From a virus (lineage: Duplodnaviria > Heunggongvirae > Uroviricota > Caudoviricetes), in IMG/VR virus record IMGVR_UViG_2541047682_000003: a stretch of 24,435 nt of DNA; one strand, given 5' to 3'. A model generated the notes under the pieces. That model worked only from the letters and a program-made list of their open reading frames with translations, searched no databases and was not told where the DNA came from. Every line of letters starts with the position of its first letter. The first letter of the stretch is position 1. Positions 6,745 through 8,384 of the stretch are shown one piece after another. The translations under genes were made by a program, and so were the position numbers.

Positions 6745-7045
6745 TTAGCAAATGAATTTATCATCTCGCCGTCAGTTGTTTTGATTTCCGGTAGCCTGCC
6801 GCGTAAAGAGCTACGTTCGGAAGACAAGTTGAACCTTCATATTTTCTGGTCAACGTTGTCAGAGTTATCACTTCTGCTCTCATTGCTGGTTTGAGCTTGC
6901 ATTGCAAGACCACTCGTGAAGGGGTTGGCCTGTGTAGCTTGTCGGAGCTGATCGCCTCCTGACTTTGCAGATTTGCGCGACGAGCTCTACGGCGAGAAGC
7001 TGCGGTGCCTTTAAATGAAGTGGTCAACAAAAACTGGCCACCGAG

Positions 7046-7864
7046 TTAGAGTTTTTTCCAGTATCGATTTTCCGATTCGTTTGGTGGTAACCCACCATTA
7101 TATTCGTGCGGTCTTAGTGCGCTGTAATATCCAACGATATAGTCCGTTATTGCGTGAGCTGCATCGCTGAAGCTTACATAGCCCGTCGCCGGCACCCATT
7201 CGTTCTTCAGACTCCTGAAGAAGCGCTCCATTGGGCTGTTATCCCAGCAGTTTCCACGCCGACTCATACTCTGCCTGATCCGGTATCTCCACAGTAACTG
7301 CCGGAACTGCCTGCTCGTATAATGACTGCCTTGATCGCTGTGGAACATCACCCCGACGGGCTTACCACGGGTTTCCCATGCCATTTCCAGTGCTTTCATG
7401 GTAAGCCTGCTGTCCGGCGAGAACGACATGGCCCAGCCCACTGGTTTTCTTGCGAACAGGTCGAGAACAACGGCGAGGTACGCCCAGCGCTTACCCGTCC
7501 AGATATAGGTCACATCACCGCACCACACCTGATTTGGCTCGGTCACGGCGAACTGCCGTTCAAGGTAGTTAGGGATAGCAACATGTTCATGACCACCACG
7601 TTTATACCGGTAAGTCGGCTGCTGACAGCTGACCAGCCCCAGCTCTTTCATGAGTCTGCCAGCAAGCCAGCGCCCCATCTGGTAGCCTCTCTGGGTTGCC
7701 ATTGTGGCGATGCTTCTTGCTCCGGCAGAGCCGTGGCTGATGCCATGCAGTTCAAGTACCTGGCTGCGTAATACAGCCCGTCTGCCGTCTGGCTTTTCAG
7801 GACGGTTTTTCCAGTATTTGTAGCTGCTGCGATGGACCCCGAACACATGGCAGAGAGTGGCCAC
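7046..7864 (-). CDS. IS911-like transposase OrfB (DDE catalytic domain)
   Basis: 272-aa ORF in the -1 frame relative to OrfA; IS3-family integrase-core-like sequence. Confidence 0.88.
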
Positions 7865-7890
7865 AGGATAACGCGCCCTGAGTTTCCCGA

Positions 7891-8193
7891 TTATCGAGAA
7901 CTGTTCAGGGAGTCTGACATCAAGAGCGCGGTAGCCTTTTTTAATATTTCATTTTCCATTTCAATACGTTGTAGCTTTTTCCTGAGCTCACGGATTTCAA
8001 TTTGTTCCGGGGTAATAGGGGAGGCTTTTGGTGTTTTTCCCTGCCGCTCATCACGTAATTGTTTCACCCATCGCGTCATTGTGGAAAGGCCGACATCCAT
8101 AGCGCTGGCTGCATCTGCCACGGTGTAATTCTGGTCAACGACCAGTTGAGCGGATTCGCGTTTAAACTCTGCGCTGAAATTTCTTTTTTTCAT
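7891..8193 (-). CDS. IS911-like transposase OrfA (HTH)
   Basis: 100 codons from [21 protein letters not shown]...; slippery heptamer A-AAA-AAG (revcomp of 7936-7942) near the 3' end for the programmed -1 frameshift giving OrfAB. Confidence 0.88.
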
Positions 8194-8384
8194 TATGGCA
8201 CCTGTGTTGTTCTGAGGTGAGCATATCACCTCTGTTCAGGTGGCCAAATTCAGTAAACCACTTCAAAATTCTGTTTTTCTGGACATGGATTCCTCCCGAA
8301 TAAACTTTGGCGATGCAATCTCGAAGCTCCTCCTGAGACGGTTGCTTCGGCATTGCATCCCACAGCTTATGTGGTTGGGTGATC

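Follow-up and report, generated by a model that had tools for sequence, protein, structure and literature searches.

An ISEc52 insertion in the N antiterminator gene of an icd-adjacent lambda-like prophage of Escherichia coli

IMG/VR virus record IMGVR_UViG_2541047682_000003, a stretch of 24,435 nucleotides (the window), carries a prophage that adjoins icd in Escherichia coli and that is lambda-like and intact apart from insertion sequence (IS) elements. One of these, identified as ISEc52, separates the first seven codons of the N antiterminator gene from the rest and supplies a stop codon in the native reading frame. We consider it highly probable that the insertion leaves the prophage unable to run its lytic programme unaided, and that it was a recent event confined to one lineage. 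The sequence itself gives the IS insertion, the stop after codon 7 and the identity of N, and it shows that the nut and terminator-like sites, the cI operon and the other early genes are intact.

The ISEc52 element and the interrupted N gene

The element, its ends and open reading frames (ORFs), and the two parts of N lie at these window positions:

7016..8265, minus strand: ISEc52 element, 1250 bp, recognised from its inverted ends, its match to ISEc52-annotated copies and its HTH_Tnp_1 and rve domains
8239..8265, minus strand: left inverted repeat (IRL), upstream of orfA; its first bases, TGA, are the in-frame stop after N codon 7
7016..7042, minus strand: right inverted repeat (IRR), with in-frame TTG codons at 7030 and 7027 that open an 89-codon hybrid ORF
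7013..7015, no strand: target duplication copy 1, AAA on the plus strand; the uninterrupted site has one AAA
8266..8268, no strand: target duplication copy 2, AAA on the plus strand and N codon 7 (TTT) on the other, from comparison with the empty site
7891..8193, minus strand: IS orfA, 100 aa (HTH_Tnp_1, E=6.8e-14)
7046..7864, minus strand: IS orfB, with the DDE/rve catalytic domain (rve, E=1e-31)
8266..8286, minus strand: N codons 1-7 (MSRKTEF), start ATG 8286, with the Shine-Dalgarno (SD) sequence GGGAGG at 8297-8292
6761..7012, minus strand: N codons 8-90 and stop, with the arginine-rich motif and a C-terminus like that of P22 gp24

The sole inverted pair returned by a repeat finder (7016-7042 and 8239-8265, 27 nt, 78% complementary) sets the length of the element at exactly 1250 bp. 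Its terminal repeats are imperfect and of the TG...CA type (TGAAGTGG...CCACTTCA). Read along the plus strand, the window passes from GGTGCCTTTAAA directly into TGAAGTGGTCAACAAAAACTGGCCACC at the first junction and from GGTGGCCAAATTCAGTAAACCACTTCA directly into AAATTCTGTTTTTCTGGACAT at the second. The inverted ends, the two domains and the AAA copies at 7013-7015 and 8266-8268 bear out the preliminary description of this DNA, in which a 1250-bp IS3-family element with an AAA duplication was placed at 7016-8265. Near the 3' end of orfA (~7946-7940) is an A6G slippery motif (AAAAAAG), with orfA and orfB in the 0 and -1 frames. The transposase is transcribed in the direction of N and pL, on the minus strand.

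The element is 100% identical to many E. coli copies that carry the PGAP label 'IS3-like element ISEc52 family transposase'. Its name rests on these labelled copies, not on the ISfinder reference sequence, and by its sequence it is identified as ISEc52, an IS911-like member of the IS3 family. Size, TG...CA ends, 3-bp duplication, orfA/orfB arrangement and A6G motif all match the ISEc52/IS911 group, and the element itself shows no differences from it. The earlier term 'IS911-like element' is thus apt for the family and the relationship to IS911, but the element is not IS911 itself and its database name is ISEc52. Copies of ISEc52 occupy a median of 3 places per genome (among the 4,886 E. coli genomes with any match), and the element is evidently active.

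On the minus strand, the broken N frame reads ATG TCC AGA AAA ACA GAA TTT and then TGA, the end of the IS supplying this stop after codon 7, just as had been described. The SD/anti-SD duplex energy for the native start at ATG 8286 is -10.3 kcal/mol. Removal of 7016-8268 (joining 8286-8269 to 7015-6761) yields a 90-codon ORF, MSRKTEFKGTAASRRRARRANLQSQ...LPNVALYAAGYRKSKQLTAR. The same DNA occurs uninterrupted in complete genomes, which confirms the proposal that taking out the IS and one AAA copy restores an intact 90-codon N with an arginine-rich motif. An upstream ATG at 8358, from which a 114-aa N is annotated in UTI89 and VT2-Sakai, was rejected as the main start because the Pfam profile spans the 90-aa form and a strong SD sequence precedes ATG 8286. 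Either start leaves the conclusion unchanged.

A 60-aa 'hypothetical protein' (WP_000438342.1) is annotated in genomes with the empty site, where it spans nutL and overlaps the start of N (window 8162-8446, minus strand). The IS target overlaps the stop codon of this ORF, which grows to 94 aa in the interrupted allele. This ORF is probably not a real gene.

The reconstructed 90-aa protein matches Pfam PF25694 (N_peptide) with E=1.5e-32 and 112.5 bits (cut-off 27.9), its residues 1-90 covering profile positions 5-100. It shares all its residues with N of phage ev207 (100% identity) and 98.9% of them with N of VT2-Sakai, Nil2 and several Stx2 phages. Its arginine-rich motif, AASRRRARRANLQSQ, aligns with AQTRRRERRAEKQAQ of lambda and AKTRRHERRRKL of P22. 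In an alignment of the reconstructed protein with VT2-Sakai N, P22 gp24 and lambda N, residues A11, R14, R15, R18 and R19 are invariant. Lambda N has an arginine-rich motif of the same type, whereas the C-terminus of the reconstructed protein resembles that of P22 gp24. Comparison of the joined ORF with the P22 and lambda proteins had been put forward as a check, and the five conserved motif residues, the P22-like C-terminus, the Pfam match and the near-identity to VT2-Sakai and Nil2 N identify the split gene, as first suggested, as a genuine lambdoid N antiterminator. A PDB sequence search with the reconstructed protein gave no match, even at E<=10. Both in the window and in annotated relatives, N is the first gene of the pL operon and lies beside the immunity region. 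The N genes of VT2-Sakai, Nil2 and ev207 type hold this same first position, but here the gene is split after codon 7.

Regulatory sites and the expected loss of N function

The sites at which N would act, and the terminators that it would be needed to override, were sought in both early operons:

8385..8429, minus strand: nutL, with boxA-like GCTCTTTAA at 8429-8421, a spacer hairpin at 8415-8403 and boxB UGGCU-GAAA-AGCCA at 8398-8385
11067..11111, plus strand: nutR, in the cro-cII spacer, with boxA-like CGCTCTTTG, a spacer hairpin and boxB UCGCU-GAAA-AGCGA
8476..8504, minus strand: putative pL (TTGATC, 17 nt, TACTAT), assigned by position only and below the promoter-scan threshold
8698..8719, minus strand: terminator-like hairpin ending the cI operon, upstream of pL (terminator scan)
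5593..5614, minus strand: terminator-like hairpin downstream of N and ral, a candidate pL-operon terminator for N to override (terminator scan)
5156..5173, minus strand: second terminator-like hairpin, between N/ral and cIII (terminator scan)
13436..13459, plus strand: strong tR2-like hairpin between ren and ninB, upstream of Q (terminator scan)

The insertion leaves nutL, which lies upstream of it, intact. VT2-Sakai has the same pL leader and nutL, and its counterpart of the putative pL reads TTGACC. The boxB stems of nutR and nutL differ by one compensatory change (G:C to C:G), while boxA and the GAAA loop are shared, and the two are predicted to be cognate nut sites, one in each early operon. 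The boxB loop known from lambda has 5 nt, whereas here the loop is the 4-nt GAAA and an extra small hairpin is present in the spacer between boxA and boxB. In minimum-energy folds of the nut sites, boxA base-pairs with the 3' half of boxB, giving an alternative structure that we take to be reminiscent of the one reported for H-19B-type nut sites.

The minus-strand hairpins at 5614-5593 and 5173-5156 separate N from cIII, gam, bet, exo, xis and int. Within the IS, a terminator scan of the minus strand found no terminator-like site. In PhiR63_2, a deposited complete phage genome (host field ECOR13), an IS200-family element lies in a T-tract directly after the tR2-like ren-ninB hairpin (13436-13466 of the window); the window has no such insertion.

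Lambda lacking N does not read through its early terminators, so that Q and the late genes are not expressed and the prophage is trapped. N dependence is expected for this prophage also, because nutL, nutR, the hairpins downstream of N and the tR2-like hairpin before Q are all present. In the sequence of events that we propose, an active copy of ISEc52 would have hopped into N of the icd-adjacent prophage, between codons 7 and 8, duplicating AAA, and the native N frame would from then on end at the IS-supplied TGA. pL and pR should still fire once the repressor is inactivated. RNA polymerase would not, in the absence of N, be made termination-resistant at nutL and nutR, and transcription would halt at the terminators downstream of N and at tR1/tR2-type terminators before Q. 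Consequently cIII, kil, gam, bet, exo, xis and int would hardly be expressed, Q would not be made and the late genes would stay off. The prophage would not excise efficiently, and by itself it would produce no particles. N-independent genes (cI and the two genes downstream of it, sieB, the porin gene and bor/iss) would remain expressed. The stop in transcription, the lack of Q and the failure to excise or form particles are all drawn from lambda biology. The same outcome is expected for N amber alleles of lambda and for the IS-inactivated lambdoid prophages known from K-12 and O157 Sakai; the present allele is an IS rather than a point mutation, and it lengthens the pL transcript by 1.25 kb.

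Several points weigh against so complete a loss of lytic function. The N dependence of this prophage is extrapolated from lambda and P22, and Rho-dependent terminators are not predictable from an analysis of this kind. An 89-codon in-frame ORF from TTG 7030 keeps the whole RNA-binding motif, and with no terminator-like site on the minus strand of the IS some N-like protein could come from read-through of the pL transcript. N could also come in trans from another lambdoid prophage or an infecting phage of the same N and nut type, and N of the VT2-Sakai type is common. The ORF in question is as follows:

6761..7030, minus strand: hybrid 89-codon ORF, MLTTSF-KGTAASRRRARR..., with a TTG start inside IRR, keeping N residues 8-90

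It may be asked, then, whether the allele is leaky. Ribosomes that finish orfB at its TAA (7048-7046), or that load at a GGTGG sequence, would start at TTG 7030 and produce an 89-aa protein (N') that still binds boxB, carries pL transcription through the IS by antitermination and raises its own expression, leaving the prophage inducible with a delay or a low yield. The orfB stop shares its frame with the 3' fragment of N, the TTG sits 15 nt past that stop, and the hybrid protein, in which MLTTSF replaces MSRKTEF, retains the full arginine-rich motif. The IS also runs along the pL transcript, with nutL upstream of it and no terminator-like site on that strand. However, TTG is a weak start codon and its SD sequence, GGTGG, is weak as well (-5.1 kcal/mol, compared with -10.3 kcal/mol for native N; 14% of random 20-mers score as well). 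orfB would itself be poorly translated, because a frameshift is needed, and a stretch of about 800 nt with so little translation would be prone to Rho-dependent polarity. Nor can an outward promoter be formed with the flank: a hybrid of TTGACC in IRR with the adjoining sequence was considered and rejected, as no acceptable -10 hexamer was read by eye at 16-18 nt. Functional rescue by the TTG 7030 ORF therefore seems unlikely to us, as does a leaky allele as a whole. The preliminary description had termed the gene N-null, which is correct in that the native frame stops after codon 7 but overstated in that the TTG ORF keeps the motif. That the insertion acts as an attenuator and not a knockout, with low-level N' at nutL amplifying itself into a delayed, thresholded induction switch, is a still more doubtful proposition. 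Somewhat less improbable, though we would not expect it, is a prophage that is defective alone and yet mobile, in that a lambdoid phage of the same N and nut type, either co-resident or superinfecting, would provide N in trans and so restore antitermination, read-through of the IS, excision and packaging. Both nut sites and every other early and late gene of the window are intact. N of this type is widespread in E. coli and in Stx phages, and some genomes have up to 5 places that match the region around N. The genome with its two IS elements (~48.1+1.25+1.33 kb, the first being the length of PhiR63_2) would be near the 48.5 kb of lambda. Such rescue by a putative helper would supplement the explanation by loss of N, not replace it.

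Occurrence and age of the interrupted allele

A search for the uninterrupted allele in related strains had been suggested, and it was readily found. CFT073, UTI89, Nissle 1917, ATCC 25922, S88, APEC O1 and many other strains carry the reconstructed 1248-bp site without interruption and at 100% identity. Among complete E. coli genomes, 239 records match the site at an identity of at least 99%, and 250 cover at least 80% of it. A perfect uninterrupted site in ~240-250 complete genomes means that the reconstruction is not a chance resemblance. None of 5,426 complete RefSeq E. coli genomes contains either IS::N junction as one contiguous sequence; two apparent full-length matches to the IS::N region were dismissed, as the IS in these sits in sieB.

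The interrupted allele was found in other assemblies. The 89-aa ORF across the left junction is present on 15 contigs, and NCBI records name its product 'antitermination protein N'. The 94-aa ORF across the right junction is indexed in 33 collection blocks and occurs on at least 24 contigs (21 of them >1 Mb), and one human-gut metagenome contig bears it also; EQN21119.1, EQQ42212.1 and POL44376.1 are among its records. Isolates with the allele include E. coli HVH 5 and the strain of OZ040819.1. OZ040819.1 equals window positions 1-18446 at 100%, and none of the three assemblies compared differs from the window. Intact N, for its part, occurs on at least 1000 contigs. Short-read assemblies are often broken or misjoined at IS elements, a general concern that we do not count as actual support for an assembly or chimera artefact at the IS::N junction. 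Against an artefact, the ORFs across the two junctions are each seen on many independent contigs, among them those larger than 1 Mb and the metagenome contig, the 3-bp duplication is clean and the empty site is perfect. We regard this explanation as already refuted, its probability being close to nil. Also rejected was the idea that the window is an artificial relocation of the IS of AHB22 (a sibling prophage at icd), as it differs from AHB22 and from CEA212U (an empty-site prophage) at a few other positions and equals OZ040819.1. The IS::N allele is real and inherited, and it is apparently confined to one lineage, represented by ~24-33 contigs. In the literature on ISEc52, PhiR phages and induction of ECOR prophages, we found no description of this allele. 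Brenes & Laub 2025, which is cited elsewhere for a panel of lambda-related temperate phages, may be the source of the PhiR records.

With ISEc52 taken out, the window and the empty-site prophage of CEA212U show ~4 mismatches and a single 1-base gap over 23.2 kb (99.97-99.99% identity). Outside its two IS elements (23 kb), the window is 99.9-100% identical to PhiR63_2. Three IS differences separate the two: ISEc52 in N and an IS2-like element at 19667-20997 are present in the window only, and the IS200-family insertion in PhiR63_2 only. No further decay was found in the window beyond the IS elements. Given the near-identity to PhiR63_2, the count of zero among the 5,426 complete genomes and the few dozen contigs that bear the allele, the insertion into N looks like a recent, lineage-restricted IS hop.

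The prophage had initially been viewed as probably cryptic, with the pattern expected of domestication by a host. A disabling lesion in a gene for lytic growth is indeed present (the stop after N codon 7, with the requirement for N taken from lambda), but there is no accumulated decay of lytic genes alongside conserved accessory genes. Unlike classic cryptic prophages, which are decayed, the remainder of this one is undecayed, and the proposal of domestication is not upheld. Even so, the insertion might have been selected, if a locked prophage benefits its host by keeping immunity, the candidate defence genes linked to cI, sieB, the porin gene and bor/iss with no risk of lysis. In favour of this, at least 24 contigs have inherited the allele, some of chromosome size and one from a gut metagenome, and no accessory gene is damaged. 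The ral-sieB-N region also bears ISEc52 insertions or IS-flanked deletions in other strains, among them Nissle 1917, in which int' to ral is lost. These neighbouring insertions are no pointer to selection against lysis, however, because an IS in sieB or between ral and sieB would leave the prophage free to be induced. All lytic genes of the window retain their 99.9-100% identity to a deposited phage, the allele is rare compared with intact N, and the identity of the three compared assemblies to the window fits clonal hitch-hiking. We thus consider it improbable that the insertion was selected, and favour ordinary IS-mediated inactivation of a prophage, for which selection for domestication is neither shown nor needed. 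Overall, the earlier interpretation stands as regards the IS3-family element, the identity of N, the premature stop and the likely N dependence; domestication is not supported, and a strict N-null state is overstated.

Neighbouring genes, related insertions and implications

The gene order is lambda-like and common to annotated relatives. It runs int, xis, ..., exo, bet, gam, kil, cIII, ea10 (DUF2528), ral, sieB, N and the pL region, followed by a DUF1828 gene, a gene for a 185-aa protein, cI, cro, cII, O, P, ren, ninB-ninX, rusA and Q, and then by a porin gene, S/R/Rz, bor/iss and terminase. The cI operon (cI, the 185-aa gene and the DUF1828 gene) had been described as intact, including its candidate defence cassette. 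We agree, and the operon has its own terminator-like end at 8719-8698.

The two genes between cI and pL (8723-10029, minus strand) occupy the position of rexAB and encode a DUF1828 protein of 250 aa and one of 185 aa that matches DUF6978 weakly. The pair matches the PADLOC candidate systems PDC-M24B (E=4.7e-10) and PDC-M24A (E=4.8e-4). LHM10-1 and BEC1-S17 have different genes at this position. An OmpC/OmpD-like porin gene was identified between Q and the lysis genes (16329-17471, minus strand), and bor/iss follows Rz (~19202-19495, minus strand). Like the porin gene, bor/iss is a lysogenic-conversion gene, and neither is affected by the lesion in N.

The second IS of the window, at 19667-20997, has 1331 bp, a 5-bp duplication (ATTAC) and the ends TGGATTTGCCCC.../...GGGGGCCAGTCTA. 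It is IS2-like, and the annotation given to it is that of an IS3-family transposase with programmed frameshifting. Situated in the late region, between bor/iss and a TonB-like gene, it is found also in CEA212U and AHB22; PhiR63_2 and 19AR0253 do not have it.

Further ISEc52 insertions were identified in the ral-sieB-N region of sibling prophages (window 6038-7015): after 6131 in ATCC 25922 (target duplication ATT), after 6520 in AHB22 (TAG), after 6533 in 19AR0253 (CCA) and near 6038 in LHM10-1 (TTT). IS-flanked deletions occur in Nissle 1917 (int' to ral lost), LTC101 and BEC1-S17. The icd-site siblings in ATCC 25922, AHB22, 19AR0253 and Nissle 1917 are the same prophage with the same IS in the same orientation, within ~1 kb of the insertion described here. 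In these siblings, however, ISEc52 lies in sieB or the ral-sieB spacer and N is intact, Nissle 1917 having additionally lost int' to ral. All ISEc52 insertions seen in ral-sieB-N of this prophage share one orientation. The region may thus be a directional hotspot or reflect an orientation bias, with at least 5 independent insertions in ~1 kb in one direction, a sample biased by a search that was centred on ral-sieB-N.

ISEc52, N of the VT2-Sakai type and the inactivation of prophage regulatory genes by IS elements are all already known, and the IS::N allele is a new instance of them that leaves the understanding of IS elements and of N antitermination unchanged. If loss of N has the consequences expected from lambda, there is a lineage of E. 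coli whose prophage is locked in the chromosome and still expresses immunity, superinfection exclusion, the porin and bor/iss. This would be useful for predicting which prophages of clinical strains remain inducible, and it would provide a natural N-minus/N-plus pair of near-isogenic prophages.

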